Shown piece by piece: positions 4,292 to 63,596 of a stretch of DNA of 64,000 nt. Origin of the DNA: a virus; the IMG/VR virus record IMGVR_UViG_3300038415_000126, positions 34,514-98,513 of that record. One strand, written 5' to 3'. A program made the position numbers and the translations under genes. Every line of letters starts with the position of its first letter. Within the stretch, counting starts at the first letter, position 1. Under the pieces are notes generated by a model that made no database searches, was not told the DNA's origin, and worked only from the letters and a program-made list of their open reading frames with translations.

Positions 4292-4900
4292 CTAGATCAC
4301 CCACGGACGTTCGTACCGTGATACCCGAGGGGGCCTAGGCTCACTTATCACACCCAAGCTCTTAGGTACCCATAGATCAGGGATGTCAGAGTAATGCATC
4401 GGAGTGCAGTGGAACTCAGGCTCGGGCTCGACCGTTGAATAGCCAAGGACCAGACTATACGACTTGCTATCGGCCAATGAAGCCTTGACTCCCGGCCTAG
4501 TAACAATGAACAAGGTCCCGCCAGGTATCAAAATCCCCTTGTCACCGAGGAATCTGGTGAGTTGATTTACCCGATTCCCCATAGTCCTCATTGGATCAAA
4601 CACACGCCCATTGTTCTTGAACCATCTGTCAGTGATCTTCAGAACAGGTAGAGTCAGCTTCAATGGCTCACTCAATGTCACGTGGTCCTGGCGCTCAAAG
4701 TGGAACTCAAACCGACCATTCTCAGTTTTATCCCACTTAGTATGCCACTTCTCACAAGTATCTTCCCAATTGACCAGTAGCCCACCCACTCCAACTGAAA
4801 CAACAGTATAGCTAGCAGCGGCCCGAGAGTACGGGACGACGCGCAAACCATCCAAGTTCTCCGAGGTCTCGTACCACTTGAGGTGGGTGGGTAAGGGCAT
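4292..4900 (-). CDS. Hypothetical protein with C-terminal tag PRVSRYERPWVI
   Basis: ORF end; start taken at ATG 4900. Confidence 0.75.
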   Translation of the reverse strand: MPLPTHLKWYETSENLDGLRVVPYSRAAASYTVVSVGVGGLLVNWEDTCEKWHTKWDKTENGRFEFHFERQDHVTLSEPLKLTLPVLKITDRWFKNNGRVFDPMRTMGNRVNQLTRFLGDKGILIPGGTLFIVTRPGVKASLADSKSYSLVLGYSTVEPEPEFHCTPMHYSDIPDLWVPKSLGVISEPRPPRVSRYERPWVI

Positions 4901-5934
4901 CGCGTGGTCGTACCATGGTGCGACAATTGTTGTCAATTGACGTGACTTGGGTGTAAACTACCGCCCCATGGATGACGATACTGACGAAGGCTTTCTGCTC
5001 TATGTGGACCTGCACTCGGAGACCGATCTAGCCTTGTTCAGCCGAGAAGACGTTGTACGACTTTTGAGGCTAGCCTGTGTCCCTCCAGGCTCCTGGTTCA
5101 TACCGAACAGGACCTTCCTCAGCGTTCACTCCGATGTTGCTCGTCCCCTCATCAAGCGAGCCAGAAGACATCTCAAGCGACTGAAGACTCCACAGTTGGA
5201 ACTCCCATTCGACTCATGCCGGGGCGCCGAGGACTACCTGCTATCCGAATGAGCCATTAAAGGCGAACGGCCCACGTGTCAGATGGGCCGCTCAAGCCTT
5301 GGTTACTCGCAAGGTTCCAATCCCTAGCGACTGATGATGGCTGGTCTGATCCTCAGTTCCCCCGTTTGCCCTGATCTTGAATTACTTCAGGAGGTAGCGT
5401 ATAGGGGAACTGGAAACCAAACGAGTGATAGGAGCATAATCAAATGCCCTGACACTGTCTAGTTCCTTTTGAAAAATCCAGTTGCTTTTGGGGCCGGATC
5501 AGCTGTCAAAGGGACAACAACGCCAACCACTGGCATCCCATCAATCTCTGATGGGATGCCCGGAGGAACCTGGCCCACACTCACGAAGTTAGCAATTAGG
5601 GTAAACCCATCATGGGAAACACCCACGTAGTCAAAGCCCGGTAGACCCATTTGTCGGAGCACATTGGTCAGCTGCTCCCTTCGAGTACCGATCTCACCTG
5701 GGTTGAAGAACCGTCGAAGCTCCTCACCAGGCTCAATCCGATACGCCGGATGATCCGACCCCATCTCAACGTACCATGCCGGCGGAGAGGGCTCGCGCAT
5801 GACTACTCCGGGCTCTGGGTAGACTCGACGAACATACCAATGGTTCCCACGCGGGTCGACGTAGTCACCACATTCTGGCCGATCCTCTTGAAACACGAGG
5901 AAGGTCCAGGTTACTAGTTCAGGGTTCGAGACGA

Positions 5935-7116
5935 TCATGTAGAAAACCGTTCAAGCAACAGTTGCTCAACAACGGCAGGGGTAGACCCCAGTAAGTCAGA
6001 GAGAGCCCCAATACTGAGAATCTCACGAGGTATCAGACGAAGCAAGCCCGATAACATCTGGGCTAATACCCCCATTGACAACCCAACTTTAGGATGGATC
6101 TTGAGGTACTCCTGACGGATCTCTCCCATGTCGCTCTCACTGAGGGCCCCTTTCGCGAATAATCGTTCGTACTCACGAAGCTTCCTCACATCAGCGATGT
6201 TGTTCAAAGAGGTGTCTGCAAGCTCCATGAGTGACTTTTCGATGATCCCACTGTTCAGCTTGAGGGAGAGAACCTTTAAGCAGAGATCGTCGTTGTTCCC
6301 ATGAAGAATGACGAGACGTATCCGGCCCTCATCGTCCAGGTACTGCGCCTTCAACTGCGCCTTGACCTCTTCAATCCGGACCCGAGCTTTGGCTCTCTCC
6401 TCTTCGTTCACCTCAACAGGGGGGCGGGTGCTCAAGGGGGCCAGTTGGTAGTACTGCGCCCAGGTACTATTCTCGATTGATAGTCTGTTGAGCGTTACAT
6501 CAGGCATGTAAACCACTGTATTACGTGCTTCAACAAGAGCCTCTTGCTCAACCCGGGCTTGCTCTTCAGGGCTGCGATGGGTAACCAGATTCTGGATTCC
6601 TCGTAGATCTGGACCAGAAACCCTCGGAACCGAGTTCCAAATGTGGGGTAACAAGTCCTCGTAGGGCATGTGAACCCCTGAATCGAGGTTATAGGGGTCG
6701 AGCCCAATCCCAAATATGGACTCATCCGACAGATCGCTGATACTACCAAGGGACGAGGATACCTGAGTGACCGTATCAATGGGGATCTCTTCTTGCCCCT
6801 CTATGACGGGCTTGCCACCACGAGGATTGAACACGAACCTGACGTCTGGTGAAAGTAAAGTACCCTTGCTTGAGTTGATTTGCCTCAGAAACTCCATCGC
6901 ACTCAAGTACTTAGATCGAACGTCTGAAGGTAACCGGCTCACGAACTCATCATGCGTAATCCCATCCTCGGCCTCTAATTGGGTGGATTCAGCCTTCTCA
7001 ATCAACTCCTCAAAGCTATGCTCACGAAGACTCGCCAGTTGCTTCGCTTGGGTATGAAACTTCTTGCTGCTTACCGCAACTTCAAAGGACCACTTGCTTC
7101 TATTTGCAGGCTCCAT
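5935..7116 (-). CDS. Hypothetical protein (~393 aa)
   Basis: Long ORF; ATG 7116 preceded by GGAGG. Confidence 0.7.
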   Translation of the reverse strand: MEPANRSKWSFEVAVSSKKFHTQAKQLASLREHSFEELIEKAESTQLEAEDGITHDEFVSRLPSDVRSKYLSAMEFLRQINSSKGTLLSPDVRFVFNPRGGKPVIEGQEEIPIDTVTQVSSSLGSISDLSDESIFGIGLDPYNLDSGVHMPYEDLLPHIWNSVPRVSGPDLRGIQNLVTHRSPEEQARVEQEALVEARNTVVYMPDVTLNRLSIENSTWAQYYQLAPLSTRPPVEVNEEERAKARVRIEEVKAQLKAQYLDDEGRIRLVILHGNNDDLCLKVLSLKLNSGIIEKSLMELADTSLNNIADVRKLREYERLFAKGALSESDMGEIRQEYLKIHPKVGLSMGVLAQMLSGLLRLIPREILSIGALSDLLGSTPAVVEQLLLERFST

Positions 7117-8487: not shown

Positions 8488-8508
8488 GCCAACTTGTTAC
8501 ACCAAGAG

Positions 8509-8538
8509 GTTGAGTTTTGACCCCTCTCGCGCGTAATA
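8509..8538 (+). promoter_or_regulatory. Class I promoter-like motif (GTTGAG-N15-CGCGTAATA)
   Basis: ATG 8545 lies 6 nt downstream. Confidence 0.8.
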
Positions 8539-8544
8539 TTAGTC

Positions 8545-8847
8545 ATGAACACTGAACGACGCTCCCTCTTTGCTTGCGGGGTTGAACTGGTACTCGAAAA
8601 CGGCAAGGTCACTATCCCCGGCAAGAGCAACGACGGCCCTCCCCGCCAAGAGTACGCCGACAAGCTCGCCACTATGACCGAAGACGAGTTCTTCGAGGCC
8701 TGCAAGAAGTACATCTGGCTCTCGGCCTATGCCAGCAACAACCCAAGGTCTGACTATCACTGGCAGAATGATGCTTGTACCCTTGAGGGCTGGCGCCGGA
8801 ACCGTGATGACATCTACCAGAAGGCCTGGAACGAGGTTGCAAGGTAA
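8545..8847 (+). CDS. Hypothetical protein, leaderless
   Basis: ORF directly after class I motif. Confidence 0.75.
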   Translation: MNTERRSLFACGVELVLENGKVTIPGKSNDGPPRQEYADKLATMTEDEFFEACKKYIWLSAYASNNPRSDYHWQNDACTLEGWRRNRDDIYQKAWNEVAR

Positions 8848-8866: not shown

Positions 8867-9382
8867 TTAGATCACCCAAGCCCGATTGTACCGCGATACT
8901 CGACGAACCTGTGGCTCATCAGGGAGCCTAACCTCGACCTGAAGAGGGACAGCAAACTGTGGGGTCAACCACAAGTGACTCGCGAGGCTTGCAGGGAGCT
9001 CCTTCATCCCCTGAATAGGGGTTAGCTCGTTGGTCAGACTCGCATATGCGAGGCCCAAATACACAACAGCATAGCCCCTATCCTCACGATGAATCCAGTA
9101 GGCCCCGTAGAAGTTCCCGTCTCTGAACCCGTACTCATTATCAGAGGCCGCATAGTCAACCATGTCCTGAGCACCCCTTGTGAGTTGTTCAAACAGAGGG
9201 TCAGCCCACTCACTGATGAGGGTGACAATCGCTATGTCATGCGTTAGGAACCATGCCTCAACGCCTGCATTCCGGTTGTCATAGTCCTTGTAGTTCAGGC
9301 AGACAATCGGAGTCGAAGTGGTGTGGAACCCAGCCGGTGCATCTGTTGGGACTTCGAACCAGCGAATCGCCTTTGAGATCAT
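8867..9382 (-). CDS. Hypothetical protein with C-terminal tag RRVSRYNRAWVI
   Basis: ORF end; coupled downstream of the kinase gene. Confidence 0.75.
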   Translation of the reverse strand: MISKAIRWFEVPTDAPAGFHTTSTPIVCLNYKDYDNRNAGVEAWFLTHDIAIVTLISEWADPLFEQLTRGAQDMVDYAASDNEYGFRDGNFYGAYWIHREDRGYAVVYLGLAYASLTNELTPIQGMKELPASLASHLWLTPQFAVPLQVEVRLPDEPQVRRVSRYNRAWVI

Positions 9383-9852
9383 ACCAAGACACTAGCCTTG
9401 AGGAAGGTCTTCTCCGGACCCCACACGACCTCGTACAGCTCGTCAAAGCCTTCCGCCAGGGTTGGGGCAACGAACAACTTTGCCTTCGCTAGAATGCCCA
9501 CACGAGGTATCAAAGCCTTCCCGACCCTCCGTGAGTTGCGATCTAGTGACTGCTGGGTAGAGCACCTAAAGTGATACCCCACAACCCAGGCAGAGTACTC
9601 CCGGCCGATTTGTATCAGCTCAGACCGCTCTTCCAACGTCACATTCGTGTTGTCCACAACCACTGAGCGCCCAGCACTCAGATCTTCTCGGATGAGTTGC
9701 GCCTGCCGAGCCGACTTGGACACCCCGCTCTTCCGGTCTCGACCCATCATGTCCTTGCTCACGACACTATGCTTCGGGTACTCCGCCATCCGGAATGTAC
9801 TCTTCCCCGATGCTTGTAGGCCCACAAGTATGACTAGGTCCATTGAATTCAC
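9379..9852 (-). CDS. P-loop kinase (AAA_33 / polynucleotide kinase-like)
   Basis: Walker A GLQASGKST, VVVDNTN motif, adjacent to Thg1-like gene. Confidence 0.9.
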   Translation of the reverse strand: MNSMDLVILVGLQASGKSTFRMAEYPKHSVVSKDMMGRDRKSGVSKSARQAQLIREDLSAGRSVVVDNTNVTLEERSELIQIGREYSAWVVGYHFRCSTQQSLDRNSRRVGKALIPRVGILAKAKLFVAPTLAEGFDELYEVVWGPEKTFLKASVLV

Positions 9853-10619
9853 TCATCCGATCTAAGCACACCCAGACCGAGACACAACTTAGTCACGAGA
9901 CTAGCATATTCTGGCCCACGAGGGAGGTCTCGGTTTACATAGACCCTTCTCCTCAAAGCCATACTCGTCTCGTTCTTCTTGGGGTTGAACCCGTTCTTCT
10001 CGAAGTTCTCCCAGTAAATCCCGCAACCCCGCTTTTGCCATGCAGGAACGTTATTGAAGTTGATCCCGTGCTTGTGCAAGAGCTCGTTCTTCTCACTGAA
10101 GGTCTTGCCCTCAAGAGCTTTCGTCGCTTCCAAGGCGCTCTTGCCCTTGCCTCGAAGCGTCCAGTAGCACCACCCATTGAGGCAGCACCGGGAAGCATCC
10201 GACTGCCTCCATCTGAAGTAGTCGACCACGTCATCATTCGAAACCCCAACCCACACGCGACTATCAAAGTGAGCCGGATAACTCAGTTTGACTGAGAAAA
10301 TAGAACTTGCCACGCCCGCGGACACCGAAACCAGCTTCTCGATCTCTCGACCGAATAAGTCGGTATCACGGGGTAAGAGAACGCTGATCTCATCCGACTC
10401 CGTGAAGGCGTAGAGCCCACCCAGCTCGACTAGTAGGGCAAGAGCCGTCGCCACCATGTAGTCGTGGAACTTGTGGTCAAAGGGGTGCTCAAACACCTTG
10501 GTCAATCGAGTGAAGCTCCGTCCATCAACGCGAATAACCATCCAAGCACCGGGAAGGGCCGCCATCGAGTGGTAACACTCAAGTCGTCGCATCCTGTCTT
10601 CAAGGCTATCGGACTTCAT
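9849..10619 (-). CDS. thg1: tRNA(His) guanylyltransferase Thg1-like protein
   Basis: IRVDGRSF, ESDEIS, FDSR, YFRWRQ, KNELL..GINFN..PAWQKRG motifs. Confidence 0.93.
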   Translation of the reverse strand: MKSDSLEDRMRRLECYHSMAALPGAWMVIRVDGRSFTRLTKVFEHPFDHKFHDYMVATALALLVELGGLYAFTESDEISVLLPRDTDLFGREIEKLVSVSAGVASSIFSVKLSYPAHFDSRVWVGVSNDDVVDYFRWRQSDASRCCLNGWCYWTLRGKGKSALEATKALEGKTFSEKNELLHKHGINFNNVPAWQKRGCGIYWENFEKNGFNPKKNETSMALRRRVYVNRDLPRGPEYASLVTKLCLGLGVLRSDE

Positions 10620-14548: not shown

Positions 14549-15082
14549 CTACACCGATGGAGAGGACGTGTCGAGGGGTAATCGATCAGCCTCCGTCAGC
14601 GCCGTCCCCTGAATCACTTCGGATAGATCAAGCCCGTCACTCGCCTTCAAGGCATCCTTGTACAACGTGAACATATCCTGAATTATTGACCTGATCTCGA
14701 AGAAAGGCCCGGAAAACTGCTCTTCTTCAGGCATAACACTGATGAGGTTTTCATGATCAATGATAAGATCCTTGATCCCCTCAAGTACCCCACCCCACGA
14801 CCAATCAAGGCTCTCAGTGTGGGTATCGACTAGCTTCCGATAGTAGTTGTACCGAGCCAAACTCGGCCGAACCATACTCTGAATTAGCTTCTCCCGCCCC
14901 TGCTTAGTGAACAAGTAGTCAGAGTAAATCTTCCTCTTGACTTTATCCCAATGATCAGATGACCCAGGTTGCTTTTGCTTAGCTATAGTCAGCTCGATGT
15001 ACCACCAAATTCTATCCTCATTGGATATATTGCGAGGTTCGACAGGGCTCTCTACGGCTGATAGGGCGCTCTCAGTTGACAT
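14549..15082 (-). CDS. Hypothetical protein, family A
   Basis: KRKIYSDYLFTKQGREKLIQSMVRP; GGTGTA motif 9 nt upstream. Confidence 0.75.
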   Translation of the reverse strand: MSTESALSAVESPVEPRNISNEDRIWWYIELTIAKQKQPGSSDHWDKVKRKIYSDYLFTKQGREKLIQSMVRPSLARYNYYRKLVDTHTESLDWSWGGVLEGIKDLIIDHENLISVMPEEEQFSGPFFEIRSIIQDMFTLYKDALKASDGLDLSEVIQGTALTEADRLPLDTSSPSV

Positions 15083-15090: not shown

Positions 15091-15624
15091 CTACACCGGA
15101 GGTCCATCTTCGTCACTTGTCTGGGTCACCAGAAGCGGGGTCCCAACCCCAGGGATCTCCTCGTAAGGATCAAGCCCAGAAACCACTTCAATCACTTCCT
15201 CCAACAACGCGATTAGCCGTACCAAACCCGCCCGTACCTCGCATACAGCTGGAATGAACCGCTCACCGTCAGGGTAGATGCTGATGAAGTTCTCGTACTC
15301 GACAATCGCTTCTTGAAGGCCCTTCAACACCCGGTTCCAAGTCCAGTCTATCGGCTGAGCCCGGGTATCTAGGATCTCCCGGTAGTACTTGTACCGTACC
15401 TGTACCGGCTGAATCATCGACTGCGCGAACTTGTTCCGCCCATCTCGATTGAACAAGTACGCTGAGTAGATCTCGCGCTTCTGATCCGCTGTGATGTGCG
15501 ACGGCCCACCCTGCGAGATGACCCAGTTGATATACCACTTGATCCGAGCCCGTATGCCCGAGTCGTTGCAGTCGTCTTCTAGGGCCTCTATCTGCTTAAG
15601 ATATCACTCGACAATGAGAGGCAT
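15091..15624 (-). pseudogene. Family A paralog interrupted by in-frame TGA at codon 7
   Basis: MPLIVE*YLKQ aligns with MAVDLEWYLDK of 3696-4289; TGA at 15604-15606 replaces TGG. Confidence 0.7.
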
Positions 15625-17645: not shown

Positions 17646-18065
17646 TTAGATCACCGGATCCCGGTTGTATCTCGAAATCCGTACCCCAATATATCGTTCA
17701 GGCTCCGTAACTTGAACCGGCTCAACAGTATCCCCTGAATACCGAATAGTCACAACTGGCTCAAGCCGACTGGTTAGGTTTTCATACCAACCCGTAGCCT
17801 CTGGAAATGTGACTTCAACAGAACAAGGCCCAAACCCACTCTCCATCGTGAACCCAAATCGATTGAACCCCGTGAGTCGAGTCCCACCTATCCAAACTCG
17901 ACCCACAGATCTTGGACTCCCGTCACTATAGCCATACTCACCCTCAAGTACCTGCATCACAACAACTAAGTCGTTCGGCCCCAACTCGTGATAACCCCCA
18001 CGTAAGCCCCCACGCCCCTTGACCACAAACACTACGTCACTGTCATCCACTTCAATGGTAGGCAT
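17646..18065 (-). CDS. Hypothetical protein with C-terminal tag VRISRYNRDPVI
   Basis: ORF end. Confidence 0.75.
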   Translation of the reverse strand: MPTIEVDDSDVVFVVKGRGGLRGGYHELGPNDLVVVMQVLEGEYGYSDGSPRSVGRVWIGGTRLTGFNRFGFTMESGFGPCSVEVTFPEATGWYENLTSRLEPVVTIRYSGDTVEPVQVTEPERYIGVRISRYNRDPVI

Positions 18066-18066: not shown

Positions 18067-18390
18067 TCAGATCACCGGCGACCTATCGTATCGACTCACT
18101 CAATGGATTGATGGGACTACCTCAGGGCTTGAACCCGTAACCGAGTACCCGAGCTGACTCACTAACCCACTAGGCCATTGAAGGGTAACTGTCCAAAGCT
18201 CAAGGTTACCGCGACCATAAACAACCTGAGTCGCTGCCACCATCATAGCTTGAAGATCTGACATACCAGGGTCAAGAGCAGAAAGTATCGAGTTCCACAG
18301 GTCCTCTGTCTCTTGGACATCGAGACCAGTAATTCTAGTCACCCGTACAGGGTTACCACCTTCACTAGCTTTTAGTGTTACTTCAATCAT
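18067..18390 (-). CDS. Hypothetical protein whose tag VSRYDRSPVI lies beyond an in-frame TGA
   Basis: ...PSIH*VSRYDRSPVI*; TGA at 18100-18102 sits where the tag has Arg (CGA). Confidence 0.65.
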
Positions 18391-18659
18391 ATTACCGGCT
18401 CCCGGTTGTACCGTGATACACGAATCATCGGCGTCCAGTCCAAACAATCGTCATGCGTGTTCGCCCGATACAACCGAATTACCGGGACCTTATTGGGATC
18501 CCCTGGCTTCTTCCACTCCCAGAGGATACCAACCGAATGCCCACGAAGGCAAGTCCCCTCCCACCCAAAGTCAGGGGACCGCTCTACCTCATCTCCAGTA
18601 GCCCCTCGACTCGGATACGTGGTCGGACACCACCGACAACCATCACAGGGGCGTGGCAT
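18387..18659 (-). CDS. Four-Cys family B protein with tag IRVSRYNREPVI
   Basis: CDGC...WEGTCLRG...C; paralog of 20448, 20760, 53224, 53451. Confidence 0.75.
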   Translation of the reverse strand: MPRPCDGCRWCPTTYPSRGATGDEVERSPDFGWEGTCLRGHSVGILWEWKKPGDPNKVPVIRLYRANTHDDCLDWTPMIRVSRYNREPVI

Positions 18660-20447: not shown

Positions 20448-20756
20448 TCAGATCACCGGCTTGCGAGCATACCTTGAAACCCGTGGCCCAAGGTATGGCT
20501 CCTCCCAGTCAGAACATATCATGGCTGGAGATCGATACAAGTGAATGGCCCTTTGATGGTCTATACCCCCAGTCTCATCAAGGTCAAAGCTCCAGGACAC
20601 CAACACCTCGTACCCACGAGCACAAGTCCCCCTCCAAGTATAAATCGAATCCGGCTCCCGACCTATCGCATCCACCCCAACAACACCCCTCCCAGGATAC
20701 ATCGAAGGACTGAATCGACACTTGTCACACGGTGCTGGCATCGGATCAGTTGGCAT
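20448..20756 (-). CDS. Four-Cys family B protein with tag PRVSRYARKPVI
   Basis: CDKC...WRGTCARG...C. Confidence 0.8.
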   Translation of the reverse strand: MPTDPMPAPCDKCRFSPSMYPGRGVVGVDAIGREPDSIYTWRGTCARGYEVLVSWSFDLDETGGIDHQRAIHLYRSPAMICSDWEEPYLGPRVSRYARKPVI

Positions 20757-20759: not shown

Positions 20760-21065
20760 TCAAATCACAGGCTCCCTTGAGTAACGACTAACCCTCGGCC
20801 CGTCATATGGCTCTTCCCGGTCACCACACTCAGTCCAAAACGGTAACCGAAACATGTAAATGACCCGCTCATGATCCTCATTCCAAACCCATGTTATCGA
20901 CACCGAATGACCCCTACTACATGAATTTTCCCAGTCAAAGCCCCCATCTGACACCTGATCAACTCGCTCACCAAGATAGCCCTTCCCAGGATAGGTAGCA
21001 GGACTGTACCGACACCCGTCACAAGGTTGCAGCATGGATGAGTTGCTCATGAAAAACTTTGACAC
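20760..21065 (-). CDS. Four-Cys family B protein with tag PRVSRYSREPVI
   Basis: CDGC...WENSCSRG...C. Confidence 0.8.
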   Translation of the reverse strand: MSKFFMSNSSMLQPCDGCRYSPATYPGKGYLGERVDQVSDGGFDWENSCSRGHSVSITWVWNEDHERVIYMFRLPFWTECGDREEPYDGPRVSRYSREPVI

Positions 21066-22003: not shown

Positions 22004-22022
22004 GAGGCCCTCTAGGGTGACA

Positions 22023-22630: not shown

Positions 22631-22725
22631 GCTAGTGCTTGCACACATGGTGAGCTAAAGTATCGTTGAAACCTGTATACAAGTATGAACCGATACTATG
22701 CTTACACGTAGAAAGTATAAAGTTG

Positions 22726-22755
22726 GTTGAGTTCTTGGGTGGCCTACGCGTAATA
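22726..22755 (+). promoter_or_regulatory. Class I promoter-like motif
   Basis: GTTGAG-N15-CGCGTAATA; ATG 22763 lies 7 nt downstream. Confidence 0.8.
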
Positions 22756-41558: not shown

Positions 41559-41939
41559 CTAGATCACTGGGTCCCGCCCATACCGACTACGCCTATTGGG
41601 CTCATCATCGGGATTCGTTTGGAAGTCGAGTTTGTCCAGAGACTCAAACTCGGCAAGTGTGTAGGATAATTCTAGGATCATGTCCTTGTTTGCCCGGATG
41701 GGCCTCAGCTCGTTAGTCCGGAAGGGCTCCTTGCGCCGGTAACCTTGATAGAATGCCACTCCGTTGAAGAAAAGCTCATCCGCAAACCCAATTCTGATCA
41801 ACGAGGGTTTCCCAACTACGACTTCGATAGCAACCCGGTTACTCACTTCTTTCCCAAAGTCCGTCAGGCTCAAGTACATGGTCTTTGGTTCGGTCTCCCC
41901 AACCGGTATGCAACCGATCACCCTGATTACCTTCGGCAT
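41559..41939 (-). CDS. Hypothetical protein with tag NRRSRYGRDPVI
   Basis: ORF end; GGTGTA 10 nt upstream of ATG 41939. Confidence 0.75.
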   Translation of the reverse strand: MPKVIRVIGCIPVGETEPKTMYLSLTDFGKEVSNRVAIEVVVGKPSLIRIGFADELFFNGVAFYQGYRRKEPFRTNELRPIRANKDMILELSYTLAEFESLDKLDFQTNPDDEPNRRSRYGRDPVI

Positions 41940-42502
41940 AGCACCCCTATACACCTAAACGGATAGTTAGTTGACACCTGGTTTATCCGTTCTCAACTCT
42001 TCTCAACTTGTCTGTGCTATAAACCATACGACCGGACAACTTCCAAAGTATGGTCATGGTGACTTTGGAGGTTAGGTGCAAAAACTAAGTCGCTCAACCC
42101 TTCTGTGCTCGATTGTGCTCTCCTGTGCAGTGCTGTGTCACCGGTATCTAAACCGCTGTCGGCTCTGTCATGGTGACAGTTAGGTTTTGACCAAACAAGA
42201 TTTCGAAGTTCTTATTTTCATAGTTTACCGGATAGGTTTCGCGTAGTAATGCCACGCGTGGTTGGACCGGTTCATGAGGTCAGCCTCGGCTATGGCGGCC
42301 TCGTAGGGTTTGGGTTCTGAGCTGGTCCACCTGGGATCATGCATGTGACCCTTGGGCTCGCAGAAGACTCCGTAGAGGCCCTCGGGGGCAGGTCTGGTTT
42401 CTGGGTTACTTTTGGCTATCTGTTCGGTTTCCATGCTATGAACTTAACACCGGGTGGTTGAAAATGGTATCTCTTTTGATCTATTAGTATCAAGTATCAA
42501 GT

Positions 42503-44805: not shown

Positions 44806-45192
44806 ATGAGGACGAAGAAGCAGTACGTAGCGGCGATTCAGGAGCTGATGACCGGGGTCCCTCGGGCGTTGATAGAGGAAGTTCTGAAAGCTCAGGAGAG
44901 GGTGGTTCAAAGGGCGTTGAGCACTGGGCCGAAGGTGGGTCGAGTGATAACGGTACCTGGGGTAGTGACGATTTTTTCCACCCCCCAGCCTTGGCGGCCA
45001 GAACGTAGGGCTCGGAACCCGGCGACTGGTAAAATGATGGTGATACCGGCGAAGGCAGCTTCAGTGAAGTTGAAGACGAAAACTCCAGTTTCACTACGTC
45101 GAGCGGCGGGTGAGCGGATCATTGGTGACCCAGAACCAGAAGTTCTAAAGCCTCGAAGGCTATCGCGATATGAGAGGCCGCCGGTGATATGA
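44806..45192 (+). CDS. HU/IHF-family DNA-binding protein with tag RRLSRYERPPVI
   Basis: RRARNPATGKMMVIPAK beta-arm motif. Confidence 0.85.
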   Translation: MRTKKQYVAAIQELMTGVPRALIEEVLKAQERVVQRALSTGPKVGRVITVPGVVTIFSTPQPWRPERRARNPATGKMMVIPAKAASVKLKTKTPVSLRRAAGERIIGDPEPEVLKPRRLSRYERPPVI

Positions 45193-50597: not shown

Positions 50598-51337
50598 GCT
50601 TGGTCCTTGGGGGAGTCCGTCTCAGTGGCAGTGAGAGCGACCGGCTTCCCAAGGAGGATGTCTCGGATCGCCCCCTCCAAAGCTTCGTACCCGCGCGACA
50701 GGTTAACCTTCTCATCATCGGTGAAGTCGCGTCCTAGGAGTCGCTGACACCCCTTGCGGGCAAGGTTGGCTAGGTTGGTCAGTAGCTCTTCGACTTCTTG
50801 TTCAGGCATGGGCTTGGGTATTCTGGTTACAACACTGTCAACGTCACAGTCACAGTGACGGAGAGGGACATTGGCGCAGCAATCACTGATCATTACCCCA
50901 CACCTTAGCTCAATACCCAATGAATTTGCAAGTATCAAGATCTTACCGGAAAGTTCGTGCACTGTCTGGAACTTTACGGTACTAGTAGCCGGCGGTGAAA
51001 CAGTACCTCCTGGCCCTCCTCCTGGTGTCTTGCACGCCACATGTGACGTTCCAGAACAGGTCACCGGTTGTCTCATCCGGTAAGTTCTCGTGTTACAACG
51101 GTAATTGCTGCTGGCCGTACCTGCATCACTCCGAGGTGAAGGATCACCACTTCATGCTCTGCACGCATGAAACCCTCCGACCCGATGGTTGGCATAGCGC
51201 TGATTTGTCGCTCAAGACCTACTTTCTTCAACCATAATCGTCTCCCCTAGTATGGATTCCCAGACACTGAAGCATACTTTACAGGGTAATACCTGGGATT
51301 AAGGTGTGACACAAATCGATTTGTCAAGAAAAAAGAT

Positions 51338-51367
51338 GTTGAGATCGGGTACCGGTGGCGCGTAATA
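51338..51367 (+). promoter_or_regulatory. Class I promoter-like motif
   Basis: In-frame ATG 51374 lies 6 nt downstream. Confidence 0.8.
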
Positions 51368-51864
51368 ATGGGCATGGACAGTCAAACCCAGAATATAAAT
51401 GAACAGAACGAACACTCATCCGTACGCCTTGCTGAGGTTATGGTATCGTCAACACCTACGGTACCACCCCCACCTGAAGGCTACTTGTTAGCTCAGGCCG
51501 AGCTTGAACTTCAGCGAGCCAAAGATTCCTTGTTGGTTCGAGCTGAGAAAGCACGGGCACAAGGGGATGTGGTCATCACGGTGCAAGAGAACCCCGAGCT
51601 AATTGAGAGTATCGCAAAGGAGATCGGTATCGACTCTCTCCGGATTACCGTACAAATGGCAGTGATCAACGGCGCTCTTATTCAAGCAGTCTTCGTTGAC
51701 GGTCGGGTTCGACCTGACCGAGCAGCCCGGATAGCTCTCAATAGGCTTAATTGGTCTGGACCCACCTTTGGGAAGATAAGCCTCGAACTCGTCCTGGGGA
51801 TGCACGAGTAACGTATTCGTGGTAGTACTCTTGCAGAATATCAGGGGATACTCTGCTGGACACC

Positions 51865-55280: not shown

Positions 55281-55784
55281 CTAGATCACGGGTTTGCGCT
55301 CGTAGCGCGAGATCCGCTTGATGGGCGGTTCCGGGGGCGGAGGTGGGCCTTCATAGATGGGTAAGCTCCACAATCTGCAGTCTACGGCTCGCAACCGACG
55401 ATATCCCTGGTCGAAACGTTCTCTGAAATATGGTTCAAGTAAATGGTTTGAGAAGGCTAGACCCACAGTAACCAAGGTCAAAGTATCTCGAATTGCGTGT
55501 GTCCTGATTACCCCGTAAAGGTGGCTTTCGAGACCCTCCTGAGACCCACACAAGACGAGGGCCTCAAGACGAGATTGGATCTGTTCGAGGATGTTTGGGT
55601 AGTCCTCTCCTACCTCTTCTTGAACCGAGAAAAGTGGAGTGATGACGTGGGACGCGCGCATAACTTCCAGGATGCTCTCGCCATCTTCGCCAATGATCCA
55701 GACTGGCTCACCTACCAATTTGGAGAACATTGGGAGTTCTTGGTCTTGCAGCTGCCACCAGGTGATTGGCCGAGGGCTTGGCAT
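55281..55784 (-). CDS. Hypothetical protein with tag KRISRYERKPVI; paralog of 63125-63596
   Basis: TWWQ....LP.F.K....PV...GE.G..I.EV shared; GGTGTA 8 nt upstream. Confidence 0.75.
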   Translation of the reverse strand: MPSPRPITWWQLQDQELPMFSKLVGEPVWIIGEDGESILEVMRASHVITPLFSVQEEVGEDYPNILEQIQSRLEALVLCGSQEGLESHLYGVIRTHAIRDTLTLVTVGLAFSNHLLEPYFRERFDQGYRRLRAVDCRLWSLPIYEGPPPPPEPPIKRISRYERKPVI

Positions 55785-55814
55785 ACTCAAAGTACACCAG
55801 AAGTCTGATTTAAG

Positions 55815-55843
55815 GTTGAGATCTGAGCACCTCGCGCGTAATA
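55815..55843 (+). promoter_or_regulatory. Class I promoter-like motif
   Basis: ATG 55850 lies 6 nt downstream. Confidence 0.8.
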
Positions 55844-55849
55844 CGTGAT

Positions 55850-56788
55850 ATGGCAAACGAAATCGGTTACAAGAAACTGAAGGACGAAACCTGGGGTCTC
55901 TCTGGAGTCAATCTAGTTCCTGGTACTACGGTTACAGTGACCAAGAAGTCAGGAGAAACCAAACAAGAGGTCGTAGGGGCCATCGTTTGGAAGAACAAGG
56001 CCGATGGTTTCTGTTTTGCCAAGATCGCTACATCGAGCCAAGCTCAGAGTCCAGCACCCAAAGCGGCCCCTAGGGCTCGTACTTCAACCCGAGGTACCTC
56101 GACTCGTCGCAGTCGTAGAAGCGGCAAGAAAGAGGGCGTCCAAGAGGGCAAGTACAGTTCTTCGCGCGAGGGTGATGAGGGTGATGAGGTAGGTCGAGTT
56201 CGCTACCTCAAAAGCCAAGGTGTCCGTATCCCCGTTGTGGTTGTAGGGTACGAAACCGGCTACTGTAACGAAGACGGATTGTCATTTGGACTACCCATGG
56301 ATGAGGGTTACTACACTACTTCGTGGTACCGTGATGCAACCGAAGAAGAAGCCACGGACCTAGCTAGTAGAGAGGCTGCCAAGATCTCGGCCAAGGAAAC
56401 CGCTGCGCGAGCTGCCAAGGAAGCTCTAGAGGCTGCCGAGAAGGCTGCGCGAGCACCACTCGAAGGTCTGATCAGAAGTGACTCTCTTGCTACCCCCAAG
56501 GGTACACGAACCTCAGTGGGTAACTTCAAGAACGATTACAGCCAGAACGTGTCTGTCACCAAGATTGAGTTGGAAGACGGACGAGTGGTCTACCACGAAG
56601 GCGTGTACATGTACGATGACAGCCGAGACTACATCTGGGCCACCCAAGAAGTACTCGCGAGCCTCTATGAGGAACGGTTGGCGGAGCACCCCATCAGTCT
56701 GGAAGAGGCCCAAGAGTACTTGACCAAGTACTCAGGTTGCTGCGGAGCTGACATTTACAAGTACGTTGTAGCTCGGACCACCATCTAA
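55850..56788 (+). CDS. Hypothetical multidomain protein
   Basis: 312 aa ORF, leaderless. Confidence 0.8.
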   Translation: MANEIGYKKLKDETWGLSGVNLVPGTTVTVTKKSGETKQEVVGAIVWKNKADGFCFAKIATSSQAQSPAPKAAPRARTSTRGTSTRRSRRSGKKEGVQEGKYSSSREGDEGDEVGRVRYLKSQGVRIPVVVVGYETGYCNEDGLSFGLPMDEGYYTTSWYRDATEEEATDLASREAAKISAKETAARAAKEALEAAEKAARAPLEGLIRSDSLATPKGTRTSVGNFKNDYSQNVSVTKIELEDGRVVYHEGVYMYDDSRDYIWATQEVLASLYEERLAEHPISLEEAQEYLTKYSGCCGADIYKYVVARTTI

Positions 56789-56803
56789 CCTAACATTTTT
56801 CTT

Positions 56804-56832
56804 GTTGAGAAAGTTGTCTCTCGCGCGTAATA
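56804..56832 (+). promoter_or_regulatory. Class I promoter-like motif
   Basis: ATG 56842 lies 9 nt downstream. Confidence 0.78.
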
Positions 56833-57759
56833 CAGAGTATCATGTCCAAGTACAGCAAACCCGAACTCGAACAACAGGCTAACGAGCTCAACAATCAGAT
56901 TTTAGTTGGGCTGGCCGCGATTGGGATCAAGGCTGAGCTGAATGATTGTACCGATGGGATCAAGATTCCTGAGTATACTTACGACATTGCTAGCGTGCGT
57001 GAGCCAAATGGGGAATCTGGTTTCAGTCGTCAACCTACAGGTAAGCTTGAAGTGGACTTCCGATCAGTCCACATGGGTCGAGGTTGCCTTTGCCATGCCA
57101 AGCGGTTCAAGGCTGATACCAAGGATCTGGTCCAGAAAGTGGTCTCCAGCGTCAAGGAGCGTCGGGAGGCTATCGTCGCCCAAGCTAAGCGTGAACGGGA
57201 AATGGGTAAGGCGCGGAGCGCTCACCAAAAAGTCCTCAAGAGTTTGAGCCTTGATTTCCCTGACTTCAAGGGTAACATCGTGAATCACAGTTCTCAGATC
57301 AACCTGAACTTTCATTGGTTGGATGAGAGCAAGGCGCGAAGGATACTCCTTGCGCTTCGGGCTGCCGGTATCAAGGGTGACCGGGGATTCGGAGAAGATG
57401 ACCCAGAGAACGAGGAGTAACATGGACATTCCAGGCATTGAGTACATCGTGGTCTGCAGAGAAGACCGGAAAGAGGACGGTACTCCCGGTGAGTACACCC
57501 TGGTGACCCGTACCATTTTCCCCACCAAGGAGGCAGCGGACAAGTTCGCTTCCGAGTGTGCGAGCGAGCGACAAGCCCTGGTCGTAGGTGGCCGGTTCAG
57601 CCAGCTACGACATGACTTCGAGGAGAGATTTCCAAAGCCTCTCATGACCGATTGTGCTAAACACGGGCATACTGAAGCTTTTGGGTATGATGCCGGTGTA
57701 ATGTGCAAGGCTTGCTTCATTGGAGCCTCTCGATATGTAGGCATTCCGTGAGATTAACT

Positions 57760-58110: not shown

Positions 58111-58609
58111 CTAACTTCTCATGCCCCTTGTTACCCGATCAGTGTTGTACCTCAAGGATGGTACGCCTTTCGACCCTTCTGTGGGTCCAGTTGATCTGAG
58201 TACAACTTGGTGGGAGCTCCACGAGATTGAGCTCCCAGAGTGGCTCTCGACCAAGGAGTACTGCAGGAGCTTTATCAAGTGGAAGCACTTCTGGGGCCTC
58301 GGGGGTAACCCAGAGTGGCCTGAAAAATGGCAACGACTCTTGTCTCGGGGTGGTTCTCCGGCGGATAGACTCGCGTGCATCCAGCTACTCAAGACCAAGA
58401 AGTTCAGGAGCAAGTTCCGCAGCGACCTCTGCGCCCAGCTCGTGAAATGGATGAACGAGGAGCGCTACCCGACCCCGTTCTCTCCTAGGCAGTGGGAAAA
58501 GCTGGTCAATAAGTACGTTGTATGGCGGGCCGAGCGCCTAGAATCCGCTCTTCGGCGAGACAAGAGCTACTACGGGGTACCCAAGGACAACTTGGAAATA
58601 CAAATTCTG

Positions 58610-58638
58610 GTTGAGAATTTGAAACCTAGCGCGTAATA
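58610..58638 (+). promoter_or_regulatory. Class I promoter-like motif
   Basis: In-frame ATG 58645 lies 6 nt downstream. Confidence 0.8.
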
Positions 58639-58923
58639 ATGAGTATGGTGGACTCAATAAATCCAGTCATGTCTCCAACCCTTGAGAGTATTGCTCTGAA
58701 AAGAGCTCTTGAGGTTATGACCCGGCTGGTCATGCTGTACAAGCTGAACAGGTTAGCTGTTACTGAGGCATCCAAGCAACGTTACCAGAGCGAGGCGCGC
58801 GAGTGTGTCCTCACCCTGGAGCAGTATTCCAAGAGTACTACGGATACCGGGGTACGCTGGGTTGTCGGGGAAGCACGTGATGTACTGGAACTCATGAAAA
58901 AAGTTGCGTAATCATAGCTTTTG

Positions 58924-58953: not shown

Positions 58954-59683
58954 TTCTGTGAAAGGACAATGATCCAATGACCCTGACCCCCTCCTACGGA
59001 CGCGACTACAAGTCAGCCAAAGAAGTGAAGGCTGACTGGGATGCCAACAAGGACTTCACGATTGCTGATGTCTTCGGTGGCCAAGCTGGTCGCCAGATCA
59101 ACAAGCAAGATGCTCCCACGGGTACTCACAACATCCGCTACAACAATCTGACCAAAGTCTGCGTCATTACGGTGAGTAAGTAATGTGGAGGTTCGGTTGT
59201 CTTCGCAGGCCTCAACAGAGTCCTGCCCATGTCCAACCCGGGACCTATGCCCCAGGTGAGGTCCCTGAGTATGCCTTCTGTGAGCCAGTTGTCGCAGGTG
59301 TCAATGCCCGCTGGTATATCCGGAAGGTCAACAACACGCTCTACCTCAGTGGTGGCATCGACACCCCTAGCCTATGCGGCCGGGTGAAGCCCTTTGGACA
59401 TGAGCGGGGCGCCATTGGTGGTTGGGACGTCAACGTCAAGATCACTGAGCGCCACCTAGGACATTCCTGCCCGGCTTGCGTCGAGGCTTATCGACTGATT
59501 TCTATACCTGCTGAAAAAGACTAGAGCCTATGGAACCACCCAAGTACAGTAAAGGCTATGAAGAGCACAGCAGCTACTGCACGTGTCCATTCGAGTTTAG
59601 GCAAGAGCATCCAGACCCAAACGAGCACGAAGAAGAGTGTGCTTGTATATGTAAGCGTCCGCCGCCATCTAGTGAAACTTCCG

Positions 59684-59713
59684 GTTGAGATCTACACCCT
59701 CTCGCGCGTAGTA
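59684..59713 (+). promoter_or_regulatory. Class I promoter-like motif (CGCGTAGTA variant)
   Basis: ATG 59720 lies 6 nt downstream. Confidence 0.75.
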
Positions 59714-59719
59714 CTGATC

Positions 59720-60307
59720 ATGACCTTCGAACCCATGGTTAAATACATCCCTCCCGGTCAACGTGGCAGGGTTGAGGTTAGTCACTTTCACATTGGGGAG
59801 TCTGAGTTCCACTCCATGCTACTCAGAGAGGCGGCTACTAGGGGTCGTGAGCAGGCTACGCCCACGGGAGACTACTGCCGGCTGATCATCAATGGGCAGA
59901 CCGTCATGAGCGACACCTACTTGGAGTACTCGACCAACCGCGAGGTGGTCTACCAGGCTCGTGGTGACGTCCTCATCGCCGGGCTTGGCATCGGCTTCAT
60001 CTTGGTCCCCCTGCTTGCCAAGGAGGGTGTGAAGAGCATCACGGTCATTGAGAAACATCAAGAGGTGATTGACTTGGTGGGTCCTCATTTCAGAGACCCA
60101 CGCCTAACTGTAACCCAAGGCGATATCTTCAAGTGGAAGCCCATTAAAGGGTCCACCTACGATGTCATCTACTTCGACATTTGGCCCTGTATTTGTGCTT
60201 CCAACCTCAAGGAAATGACCCGACTTGAGAGACGATTCAGGCCGTTCAAGAGTGAGGGTGGCTGGATGGGCTCGTGGGCAAAGACCCGTTGTAGGAGACC
60301 TAGGTAA
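59720..60307 (+). CDS. Class I SAM-dependent methyltransferase, spermidine synthase-like
   Basis: VLIAGLGIG, TVIEK, GDIF, YDVIYFDIW. Confidence 0.85.
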   Translation: MTFEPMVKYIPPGQRGRVEVSHFHIGESEFHSMLLREAATRGREQATPTGDYCRLIINGQTVMSDTYLEYSTNREVVYQARGDVLIAGLGIGFILVPLLAKEGVKSITVIEKHQEVIDLVGPHFRDPRLTVTQGDIFKWKPIKGSTYDVIYFDIWPCICASNLKEMTRLERRFRPFKSEGGWMGSWAKTRCRRPR

Positions 60308-60906
60308 TCATGAAATGGGACATCGACAAGGCGTTGGAGTCGTACGGTCAACCTGGGGTGCTCATTGAGCACAGTGTTGTTCGAGTGCTGATCCATAGGG
60401 GCCAGTGGAAGAACCACCGGCTCAATCCCAAGCTGACTGATCCGAACCAGGAAAGCGTTCTCGCTTGGAGCCTCGGTGTTGGCCGGTGGGGACATCCCAA
60501 GCTGTTCGTTATGGCTCTGACCCTTCGAGAGGCTCATCTACGGTTGCGCAAAATTATCATGAAGATGGATCAGGAACCGGCCAACCTCTATGGGGTCAGG
60601 TTCAAGCCCAAGCGAAATAAGTTCGAGCGTCGAGAGCGGAAACCCAAGAAGCCGGTTGAGGTTAAACCGACCAAAAAGAAGGCCAAGTGATCCATGGATC
60701 TAGACACATTCATCAAGAAGCTTCAGGACTTGCGAGCCACGGGTGGTAACCTGGACGTGTTCTACTTGGTCCACTCAGACTCAGAGCAGTACCCGGCGGA
60801 CGACGTCAAGATTGTTCAGGCCGATGAGGCTATCGAGGAGAAGATTGGTCTTTCAGAGGGTACCCCGTACGTCCTGATCGAAAGCGAAGCGGTCTGGTGA
60901 TTCCTT

Positions 60907-60936
60907 GTTGAGTTCCTGGGAGGCTGGCGCGTAATA
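60907..60936 (+). promoter_or_regulatory. Class I promoter-like motif
   Basis: ATG 60943 lies 6 nt downstream. Confidence 0.8.
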
Positions 60937-61528
60937 CCTAGTATGACCACTCCGACCACCCCCGAGACCGAGAACAGGACGCCCGAGAACATCAAGTACA
61001 TGCCGATGTTCAACCTGGTTTCTCCGAAGGACAACTGGAAGAAACCCATCAACGCGCTGGTTGACCCGATGGATCTGGTCGAGCTTGGGATCACCAAGCA
61101 GGACTTGTCGGACGCAGTTGAGTTCTTCACGGGTGCGCCTGCTGTCATCGTACGTGAGGGTAACAAGTACCGCGTGACGGCTCCGGGGTACTACATCGTT
61201 GTTGGAGCATGAGGGATGCATCAGGTTGAGACCCCTATTCACTGGCTATGGTTGGCGCGCGGAACGGAGCCTACTATCAATGTGGGCTCTGGCGGAAGTG
61301 CTTTGGTGATGATCGGGGACTTCGAGAAGGACTTCAAAGTGGTTGGGGAGGGACTTCTGAAGGTACCCCTCTTCAAGTTGAGTGTCCGCACTGGTTCGAG
61401 CCCCTCGCTTGAATCGAGGATCGCCGACCATGTCCAGATGACGGTCAAGTGGGCTCGGGCGTTGAAGGCTAGGTGGTCCAGCCTCAACATCTACGGGACC
61501 TTGAAGTCGAAGGGGACCCAAGGGGGGA

Positions 61529-61750
61529 GTGAGTAGCGGAGCTGGCGGGACCCCATTGGTTGACTCTGTCGAGATGGGCTTGGTCTGCGCAAACATACCG
61601 CTGATGAACCATCCGGGCCTGGTTGTTCTAGACCACAGTAGGGTGGACTACCTGAAGCTGCCGCGCTTCTTAGTGGAAGCCATGGCAGAGCTGCCAACTA
61701 CTGAACCAACCCCGCGCGTGAGCCGTTACGACAGGAAGTAGGTCATCTGA
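61529..61750 (+). CDS. Small protein whose tag PRVSRYDRK*VI is split by TAG
   Basis: AGG AAG TAG GTC ATC TGA at 61733-61750. Confidence 0.65.
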
Positions 61751-61830: not shown

Positions 61831-62913
61831 ATGCACTACCATGATCCAGACAAGAAACGCGCGCATGTAATAGTCTTCTACCGAGACTTCAAGGACTACG
61901 ACGACTATGGGGACTACGGGTACGAAGGTTACGGCCGTTGTCACCGGGGTTTGGGTATCAATGCCCTCATGACCGTCAAGTGTCTGCGTAAAGCCGGCAT
62001 ATGCGCTGACCTGAGTGCAGTCATGCACCTAGAAGATGTCAAGAAGGAGCTTACCAAGCACAACCCCACCCATGCTGTGATTCAAGCATTATGGATCTCA
62101 GCGGAAGACCAAGCAGAGCTTTGCCAAGCATTCCCTAATACCCACTTCATCGTCCGGTGTCACAGCCAGATTGGGTTCCTGCAGGTCGAGCCGAATGCCA
62201 TCAAAATCCTGCGCGACCTTCTATTCATGCAGGAGTTGCAGCTCAATCTTTCGGTCTCGGCCAATACCCATCGATTGAGGGAGTTCCTTGAGCAGACCTA
62301 CAAGAGCCGGGTGGTCTACTTGCCGAACCTCTATGATGTTGAGCGTGTTCGCCGGAAGCGGGACGAGAGCCATGACCATCGAGTCCTGAGAGTCTCTAGC
62401 TTCGGGGCCCATCGACTACTCAAGAATCACACGACGGCCGCGGCTGCTGCCCTGATGATGGCCGAGCGGCGCGGGTCCGACTTGGAGTTCTATGTGAACG
62501 CCGGACGTGAGGAGAACCTTCCGAAGAAGTCGTCAGTGATCTCGTCGTTGAAGGCAATGTTCGACCGGTTGTCGTGGGCCAAGCTCATCGAGAGTCCGTG
62601 GGCGGAGTGGAGCCAGTTCAGAGCAACCGTAGCGCACATGGATCTCTGTATGCAGGTTTCCTTCACGGAGACCTTCAATATCGTGACCGCTGATGCTGTT
62701 GCAGAGGGAGTACCTAGCGTGGTGTCCAGTGCTATCGAGTGGACACCGGAACGATGGCATGCCGAAGTCGACAATGCCGCTGACATCGCTCGGGTAGGGT
62801 CCAGTCTACTCTGGGACACTCATGCTGCTGAAGAGGGGCTTCATGCCCTGGAAAGGTACCTCAAGTGCGGGATCAAGCACTGGTTGGAGTACCTGGACAG
62901 CAACCCCACCTAG
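61831..62913 (+). CDS. GT-B (GT4-like) glycosyltransferase
   Basis: LKNH and DLCMQVSFTETFNIVTADAVAEGVPSVVS signature. Confidence 0.85.
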   Translation: MHYHDPDKKRAHVIVFYRDFKDYDDYGDYGYEGYGRCHRGLGINALMTVKCLRKAGICADLSAVMHLEDVKKELTKHNPTHAVIQALWISAEDQAELCQAFPNTHFIVRCHSQIGFLQVEPNAIKILRDLLFMQELQLNLSVSANTHRLREFLEQTYKSRVVYLPNLYDVERVRRKRDESHDHRVLRVSSFGAHRLLKNHTTAAAAALMMAERRGSDLEFYVNAGREENLPKKSSVISSLKAMFDRLSWAKLIESPWAEWSQFRATVAHMDLCMQVSFTETFNIVTADAVAEGVPSVVSSAIEWTPERWHAEVDNAADIARVGSSLLWDTHAAEEGLHALERYLKCGIKHWLEYLDSNPT

Positions 62914-63124
62914 GGCGGCCCTAGCCGGTTGTAGGAGCCGTCATCGTTGACGGTCCACCTCTGACCCCTCCGAGACTGATGTGGATCCTTGTGATCTTTT
63001 GGTAGATCACAAGGATCCATATAGTAGGTGGCCAAGCACTTGGGGTAGTGCTTGAGACAGAGCAAGCAGAAGACCGTGTAGTACTCGTCGCGACACTCGT
63101 GTTCGGGATGTTCGGGGCATTTCA

Positions 63125-63596
63125 TCAGATCACCCAAGGGCGTTCGTAGCGTGACAATGGGCCAAGCCTAATCTCTCTTGGGAGACCCTTTTCAACACAT
63201 TCCCAGTGATCTAGAACATAGTACTTGGGTTGCCCGGTGTGGCTTATATCCGGTTGGAAGTCAGCAGCGATGAAGACCTGGGAGTACGCAACCCCTAGGA
63301 GAACGTCTTCCTTAGAGTACCGGATGACGCAGTTGAATACACCAGGTACCATGCTCTTAGACTTGGCGCATCGCGCATCCCAGCATCTCCGTGAGTTGGT
63401 AGTTGACCCTGGCGGGTGTAAAGGATGCTCGATTCGTAGCAGATAGTGGGAGTATCACCATAGTTCGGCTGACAACCTCGATGATGGCATCCCCATTCTC
63501 ACCTAACAGGATGACCGGAGATCTGTCCGGTTTCCCAAAGGTGGGTAGGAATCCCTCTTCTATTTGCCACCAGGTGACTACGGCCGATACTACCAT
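63125..63596 (-). pseudogene. Frameshift-split paralog of 55281-55784 with tag PLSRYERPWVI
   Basis: 63357-63596 matches the N-half and 63125-63352 the C-half, in different frames. Confidence 0.65.

Follow-up and report, generated by a model that had tools for sequence, protein, structure and literature searches.

A strictly C-terminal 11-residue peptide that looks like an address label on accessory proteins of a huge-phage clade

Introduction

Sorting of proteins by short terminal signals is central in eukaryotic cells, while the phage examples known are few and narrow, the capsid-targeting sequence (CTS) of T4 being one. The T4 CTS and the cargo-loading peptides of encapsulins share a simple design, in which a short terminal peptide on a flexible linker is carried by unrelated cargo proteins and takes them into a shell of the HK97 fold. 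Here we describe an 11-residue C-terminal tag, R-[VIL]-S-R-Y-x-R-x-[PW]-V-I-COOH, which is found on about one gene in ten in a fragment of a viral genome and in its relatives, and which looks like an undescribed address label for one partner. The fragment (hereafter the window, 64,000 nucleotides in full) covers bases 34,514-98,513 of the 98,513-bp IMG/VR record IMGVR_UViG_3300038415_000126 (G000). Full-text literature searches found no paper on the motif.

The likeness to encapsulin and T4 peptides is one of design. The sequence of the tag is unrelated to theirs, and its carriers, about 10% of the genes, are far more numerous. In T4 the CTS stands at the N-terminus and the prohead protease cleaves it away, whereas the tag is C-terminal and no such protease site is evident. 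Ligands of PDZ-type and carboxylate-clamp receptors (class II phi-x-phi-COOH peptides, the DegS/Tsp ligands, the SKL-COOH of peroxisomal targeting signal 1, the EEVD-COOH of Hsp70) resemble it in being strictly terminal, with an aliphatic end and conserved alternate residues; their conservation, however, covers 3-4 residues, compared with 11 in the tag and 18 in a Y-x-G-P-R subset of it. The tip of the single-stranded DNA-binding protein SSB (DDDIPF-COOH) and the clamp-binding peptides also dock to partners from the end of a disordered linker. The SSB tip has the opposite charge, and its logic is reversed here, with many tagged clients and presumably one hub that reads them.

Two relatives were compared with G000: IMGVR_UViG_3300037067_010056 (G001, 66,974 bp), sampled from a landfill leachate well in Southern Ontario (bioRxiv 10.1101/2024.05.30.596742), and IMGVR_UViG_3300031712_000006 (G002, 66,340 bp). 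Together the three records give 231 kb of searchable sequence of the clade, each record covering 13-19% of its genome. Carriers are labelled T in G000, U in G001 and V in G002.

Results and Discussion

The tag is strictly terminal

A reading of the window made from its letters alone (hereafter the sequence-only reading) had listed ten tagged stops and two interrupted copies, counted as "a dozen" carriers. All ten stops close open reading frames (ORFs) that end in [ST]RYxRx[PW]VI (T11-T13 and T15-T21 in Table 1). The two broken copies, ending at 18067 and 61750, are real as well, each with a single stop codon within the tag. A dozen is an undercount: ten further tagged ORFs lie in the 34.5 kb left of the window in the same record, and scanning of the relatives revealed 20 more in G001 and about nine in G002.

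In six-frame translation the core RY.R.[PWS][VI]I is present in 21 copies in G000, 20 in G001 and 9 in G002. A stop codon follows directly in all 50 copies and none is internal. The window alone contains 11 copies, again all 11 with an immediate stop and none internal, while 0.017 copies anywhere and 0.0007 with a stop are expected by chance per 64-kb window; none of 200 shuffles yielded a core copy followed by a stop. Since all 50 copies are terminal, the motif is not equally common internally or in non-coding frames, an outcome that the sequence-only reading had set down in advance as fatal to itself.

The consensus was counted from the C-terminal end over 47 full carriers. Four positions hold the same residue in all 47: R at -8, Y at -7, R at -5 and I at -1. 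V is found at -2 in 46 of them, S at -9 in 41 (T in four others), R at -11 in 38, and V, L or I at -10 in 34. Position -6 is E in 26 and N in eight carriers, and position -4 is variable. At -3 the choice is between P (27/47) and W (19/47), of which W fits class II PDZ ligands and P is unusual for PDZ ligands. In eight carriers an extra Y-x-G-[PLV]-R element is found upstream of the tag.

Selection acts on the peptide

Codons vary at each position of the tag, with both TCN and AGY used for serine, all six codons for arginine, four for proline, four for valine and three for isoleucine. All three stop codons are used after it, and there is no conservation 3' of the stop. Synonymous variation of this kind had been claimed in the sequence-only reading, and it extends to every tag position. 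In eight of nine orthologue pairs the nonsynonymous divergence (dN) of the tag is lower than that of the body: tag values are 0-0.04 in five pairs and reach 0.42, body values are 0.24-0.54, and synonymous divergence is saturated in both. T11 and U16 differ in seven of the 11 tag codons and six of these seven changes are synonymous. When representative proteins, 1.84 billion in all, were searched with a profile of the T11 family (A1), 22 clusters matched, 21 of which end with the tag, down to E ~1e-4; a few members have F in place of Y.

The terminal position of all 50 copies, the turnover of synonymous codons and the lower dN of the tag in eight of nine pairs together indicate that selection is targeting the tag peptide and its place at the very end of the chain, as had been suggested from the codon usage.

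Conservation at the level of translation, either as a nascent-chain element acting at termination or as a GGTGATC Shine-Dalgarno sequence with a TGATG stop-start that couples the next gene, is the least probable of the explanations considered here. The usual 3' end of 16S rRNA can pair with GGTGATC, a start overlapping or abutting the stop follows about one third of the tagged genes, and the valine and isoleucine of the tag are most often encoded by GTG and ATC. Yet S-R-Y-x-R has no nucleotide conservation, its serine being drawn from two codon families and its arginines from all six codons; position -3 is restricted to P or W though any NNG codon would preserve GGTG; and the overlapping start is missing in two thirds of the copies. 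In the convergent pairs U18/U19 and V09/V10 both genes are tagged and neither has a downstream cistron.

The convergent tagged genes overlap by 8 nucleotides (G001 44385-44392 and G002 44369-44376), and the last isoleucine codon and the stop of each come from the palindromic TCATATAA.

The tag is borne by different bodies

BLAST at E < 1e-3 sorts the 47 carriers, stripped of the tail (the last 13 residues), into 28 clusters. Homology of all carriers along their full length, a second outcome that would have counted against the sequence-only reading, was thus not found: there are 28 clusters, with distinct known domains among them. The HU-family carrier reported earlier is T19, in which PF00216 matches residues 3-84 of 128 (E 5.8e-7, 30.1 bits at a cut-off of 22.4), and the four-Cys family B is represented by T15-T17. 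In G001, U02 and U12 are Tad2-like proteins (PF11195, 37.3 and 38.7 bits, cut-off 25), an assignment by profile similarity that was confirmed in six frames. The matches cover profile positions 1-71 and 1-73 of 73 and span residues 1-67 of 96 and 1-60 of 84, respectively, with the linker and tag following. A sub-threshold match to DUF2158 (18.9 bits against 22.3) likewise precedes the linker and tag of U13. The description of the carriers as members of unrelated families therefore stands for the HU and Tad2-like proteins and for the 28 clusters; it has to be narrowed in that most carriers are orphans and several belong to small paralogue families.

Most carriers have no match in Pfam or PHROGs. 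Weak "tail/virion" PHROG matches turned out to be confined to one inserted 60-residue module of V06 and were discarded. The ESM Atlas gave no lead for T11 or T16, and Foldseek with the T11 model found no match at E < 0.05 in PDB or BFVD. A VIA-align search with T11 reached a best Z of 4.3, in a list rich in HK97-fold capsid and encapsulin proteins at Z 2.5-4.3, which is too weak for use.

The 20 residues ahead of the tag form a linker with 14.9% proline compared with 5.8% in the bodies (2.6-fold) and a 1.65-fold enrichment of glutamate, in agreement with the Pro/Glu-rich linker noted before. AlphaFold2 models the body of T11 (residues 1-185) with confidence (predicted local distance difference test, pLDDT, 81; predicted template modelling score 0.77), and its tail (residues 188-202, pLDDT < 50) is predicted to be disordered. 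A C-terminal peptide behind a Pro/Glu-rich linker, a tail disordered in the T11 model and 28 clusters of carriers match the anatomy of an encapsulin-type cargo signal; signals of that type also bind the inner face of an HK97-fold shell protein.

The tag can also be lost on its own. In T14 a TGA replaces the arginine codon of R-V-S and an intact tag follows it, while the body belongs to the tagged family of U11, U17, U18 and V09. A strain about 98% identical, from a pond metagenome, has G at plus-strand position 18102, which restores CGA (Arg) and leaves the T14 tag intact. The nonsense allele of the peat strain thus removes precisely the tag and does not touch the body. The TAG at 61739-61741 in the other broken copy is one transition away from TGG. 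For tagged U15 of G001, the window contains a partial homologue that lacks the tag. Judging by these comparisons of sequence, the tag is portable and separable from the body.

A ten-codon mini-ORF, M-P-R-Y-E-R-D-P-V-I-stop, lies between two tagged genes of G002 (L038, 23043-23072). A carrier was probably deleted here, leaving the tag alone behind.

If the tag were not portable, all carriers would have come from one ancestral small protein of which the C-terminus alone is still recognisable. The prevalence of orphans of 75-220 residues in tandem arrays is in keeping with such common descent, as is family A1, tagged in the 21 of 22 clusters mentioned above and with no untagged relatives found anywhere. 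The known domains contradict this explanation: the tag comes after a complete domain of HU or Tad2-like type (and after the sub-threshold DUF2158 match), which already implies that several bodies differ clearly in fold, and members of these unrelated families elsewhere lack the tail. The 28 clusters have no detectable similarity to one another, and the A1 hidden Markov model matches no other carrier. We consider common descent highly improbable.

A docking peptide with one reader is the favoured explanation

With moderate confidence we regard the tag as an address on small accessory proteins of a huge-phage clade, in the form of a short and portable linear docking peptide, and we take these proteins to have one reader in common. 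A docking signal for one partner is suggested by its being strictly terminal, rich in information, basic and aliphatic-ended, and by its place on a disordered Pro-rich linker of many unrelated small proteins. Displayed at the very end of that linker, it would bind the common reader in extended-strand conformation, its free carboxylate and final isoleucine sitting in a pocket. Binding of the strand by one face is suggested because, counting back from the C-terminus, every odd position (I, P/W, R, Y, S, R) is conserved while -4, -6, -10 and -12 vary. As the tag carries three arginines, the reader should present an acidic groove.

Docking might, with low confidence, gather the accessory set (the homologues of anti-defence sponges, the HU-like DNA binder and many orphans) at one phage-built assembly. 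The procapsid would be the first guess, so that the carriers travel with the DNA. Among possible purposes, loading into a phage-built assembly may be placed first, ahead of a tether to an unfoldase or protease, with processing by the HExxH peptidases in third place. Procapsid loading is put first because encapsulin cargo peptides and the T4 CTS offer an analogy, and because the carriers are of the accessory type that phages inject.

Several points weigh against this explanation. Searches of the 231 kb, which cover only 13-19% of each genome, found no PDZ domain (PF13180, PF17820) and no ClpX zinc-finger (PF06689) or AAA_2 (PF07724) domain. The same 231 kb hold no capsid or other structural gene, so that virion loading is put forward by analogy alone, nor is it obvious why a Tad2-type sponge should be packaged. 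Orphans in tandem arrays make up most of the carriers, so that gene duplication, and not tag transfer, accounts for a part of the spread. Finally, the last codons of the tag, GGTGATC, often followed by TGATG, resemble a ribosome-binding site with an overlapping start, and a constraint on the nucleotides themselves may contribute to keeping P/W-V-I conserved.

One candidate reader, a conserved acidic ORF of 139 residues (19148-19567) that heads the tagged array, gave an AlphaFold2 model with pLDDT 57, which is unusable.

As an alternative to an address tag, the peptide could be a degron or tether for an AAA+ unfoldase or protease of ClpX or Lon type, of phage or host, which limits the lifetime of the carriers or delivers them for remodelling. 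The ClpX signals C-motif 2 of MuA (RRKKAI) and the LRVVK peptide of SspB, which tether their proteins to the unfoldase, are like the tag in combining basic residues with a free, aliphatic C-terminus at the end of a flexible tail, and the carriers are small accessory proteins, perhaps needed only temporarily. Unlike those signals, the tag has an invariant tyrosine, P or W at -3 and x positions that are often acidic, and its 11 residues with six invariant positions go far beyond the constraint seen in known degrons. There is no evident gain for a phage in destroying its own anti-defence sponge and DNA binder. The lack of the ClpX zinc-finger and AAA_2 domains in the 231 kb is a weak argument here since the genomes are fragments. 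On balance we think a degron rather unlikely.

Still less probable is that the tag is a recognition or cleavage site of the phage HExxH zinc peptidases and that the carriers are processed. R-x-x-R-x-x-R looks like a basic cleavage site, each tag-rich fragment has two or three paralogous HExxH peptidases, one of which directly follows the tagged array U09-U12 in G001, and the peptidases themselves have look-alikes at their termini (RVAARY at the N-terminus, VVSRY... near the C-terminus in several homologues). These look-alikes, however, comprise 4-5 residues and may be due to chance. The peptidase family is present on more than 120 huge-phage contigs (up to 512 kb) while the tag occurs in one clade only, and a plain cleavage site would not require the strict terminal position. 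Complex prediction of an HExxH peptidase with a 40-residue tagged tail scored 0.00, which is evidence neither way. The C-terminal VSRYARREWP of peptidase p1 was considered as a degenerate tag and rejected, as close orthologues have different ends.

Within the docking explanation we tentatively put forward a wider view, for which the probability is clearly lower: huge phages may use clade-specific terminal "zip codes", by which a dedicated phage receptor brings together small accessory proteins, perhaps a hundred in number, in the procapsid or in some other compartment built by the phage. Anti-defence sponges, DNA binders and host-takeover factors would then be delivered or concentrated together as an arsenal. 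Candidate end-tags seen in other huge phages, mostly unchecked, are VxxV[MQH][ED]S-stop, K-T-L-I-stop, N-terminal MNRYDIALGKKPPP and R-V-x-A-R-F; both their sequences and their clades differ from those of the tag described here.

If the zip-code view is true, a bacterial virus would have a protein-sorting system with a defined signal and a defined reader. In this phage of ~450-500 kb, about 10% of genes are marked by a single 11-residue C-terminal signal, among them homologues of an anti-defence sponge and of a histone-like protein. The tag is short and transplantable, a direct handle for fishing out the reader and for reporter fusions. It could assign a class of function to dozens of orphan proteins together, could reveal how large accessory proteomes of huge phages are organised, and could yield a compact tag-and-reader pair as a tool.

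The tag is confined to one clade of huge phages

G000 has a GC content of 53% and a completeness of 19% as estimated by CheckV. The G002 sequence is identical to a part of the Joint Genome Institute (JGI) scaffold Ga0265338_10000010 (443,068 bp), and contigs of 464,890, 442,082 and 225,778 bp bear orthologues of window proteins. With a 443,068-bp scaffold containing G002 and with orthologues on contigs of up to 464,890 bp, the genome is about 450-500 kb, i.e., that of a huge phage. The sequence-only reading spoke of a phage-wide signal, which is an extrapolation from about a fifth of the genome.

Besides G000, an IMG/VR-wide scan with a DNA pattern found multiple copies of the tag only in G001 and G002, and an IMG/VR-wide peptide scan confirmed only the same two records. 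In JGI metagenomes 33 stretches encode SRYER[EDK]PVI; the four that were confirmed are G001- or G002-like contigs. Three pattern matches were found in 596 Gb of prokaryote species genomes and none of them was confirmed. A tag census in a 5.8-billion-protein collection gave only orthologues of known carriers, matches to the tag alone falling short of the E-value limit. Within the databases scanned, the tag is confined to one clade of huge phages, sampled from peat, pond and landfill. Public sequencing runs that contain the stretch are peat metagenomes, the probable source, and pond and viral metagenomes, with no RNA runs listed among them. Blastn with 7.9 kb of the window as the query found no match among INPHARED phages.

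Carriers and other features of the window

The carriers of the window are listed in Table 1 together with the promoter-like elements described below. Several of them keep the tag across the clade. The T11 orthologues U16 and V08 are tagged while their bodies are 51-57% identical, the T12 orthologue U14 (54% identity) is tagged, and so is V05, a homologue of T13. T18 retains the tag in five of five orthologue clusters from other samples.

Table 1. Tagged genes, broken copies and promoter-like elements in the window (positions within the 64,000-nucleotide stretch)
Feature	Coordinates	Strand	Length (residues)	C-terminal end and remarks
T11, family A1	4292..4936	-	202	Likely ATG at 4900; end PPRVSRYERPWVI-stop; tag codons 4295-4327
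T12	8867..9382	-	171	End RRVSRYNRAWVI-stop; last gene of operon with Thg1-like gene and AAA_33 kinase
T13	17646..18065	-	139	End YIGVRISRYNRDPVI-stop; extended Y-x-G-x-R element
T14, broken copy	18067..18447	-		Body ORF 18103-18447; TGA at 18100-18102; VSRYDRSPVI-stop in frame at 18067-18099
T15, four-Cys family B	18387..18659	-	90	End MIRVSRYNREPVI-stop
T16, family B	20448..20756	-	102	End EEPYLGPRVSRYARKPVI-stop
T17, family B	20760..21065	-	101	End EEPYDGPRVSRYSREPVI-stop
T18	41559..41954	-	126-131	End DEPNRRSRYGRDPVI-stop
T19, HU-type	44806..45192	+	128	HU domain residues 3-84; linker DPEPEVLKPR; tag RLSRYERPPVI-stop
T20	55281..55856	-	about 167-191	End PPPPPEPPIKRISRYERKPVI-stop
Broken copy	61529..61750	+		End EPTPRVSRYDRK; TAG 61739-61741 at W/P position, then in-frame V-I-TGA
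T21	63125..63352	-	75	End RLGPLSRYERPWVI-stop
Promoter-like element	8508-8557
Promoter-like element	22723-22760
Promoter-like element	35950-35997
Promoter-like element	38347-38380
Promoter-like element	39023-39070
Promoter-like element	39507-39554
Promoter-like element	51337-51386
Promoter-like element	55813-55860
Promoter-like element	56799-56840
Promoter-like element	58605-58646
Promoter-like element	59683-59732
Promoter-like element	60904-60941

Nearly all genes of the records are orphans. The recognisable ones encode an RNA ligase, a Thg1-like enzyme, an AAA_33 kinase, a GT4 glycosyltransferase, DUF2786/DUF7168 proteins and the HExxH peptidases. There are no tRNA genes in any of the three records. 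A set resembling a tRNA-repair system consists of the Thg1-like gene (PF04446/PF14413) with the AAA_33 kinase, and the RNA ligase (PF09414); it is located at window 9379-10619 (minus strand) and G000 24238-25176 (plus strand).

Window 440-1771 (minus strand) and G000 33598-34956, beyond the left edge of the window, encode neighbouring HExxH zinc peptidases of 443 and 452 residues. The peptidases (HELGH/HEFGH with E[DN]FAE) have the N-terminus D-P-I-x-L-R-V-A-A-R-Y, and an ORF of 446 residues that is not a peptidase (window 42503-43843, plus strand) starts with MSADLIQRVASRF. The more than 120 peptidase homologues come from huge-phage contigs between 140 and 512 kb long; RVxxR[FY] is retained at the N-terminus of many of them, and some have VVSRYLH... 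at the C-terminal end. The N-terminal RVxxR[FY] looks like a second shared motif, wider in its distribution than the tag clade.

A promoter-like element, TTGAG-N14-GCGCGTAATA, is found 5-8 nucleotides before ATG in 15 copies in the record, 13 of them on the plus strand. Its closeness to the ATG would imply leaderless mRNAs. Promoters of this class head none of the tagged genes, and hence no shared promoter links the carriers.

Untagged acidic paralogues (isoelectric points 4.6-4.9) are interspersed among the tagged genes and conserved in the three records (window 3696-4304, 14549-15082 and 15091-15456, minus strand). Many genes, both tagged and untagged, start with M-P (ATGCC), and the ATG often overlaps the TGA of the preceding gene (TGATGCC), e.g., after 4292, 17646, 20760 and 63125. 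Adjoining a tagged array, an intergenic perfect tandem repeat at window 21998-22191 comprises six to seven copies of the 25-nucleotide unit ATGTAGTTTTTCGTGGTCCCCCTAC.

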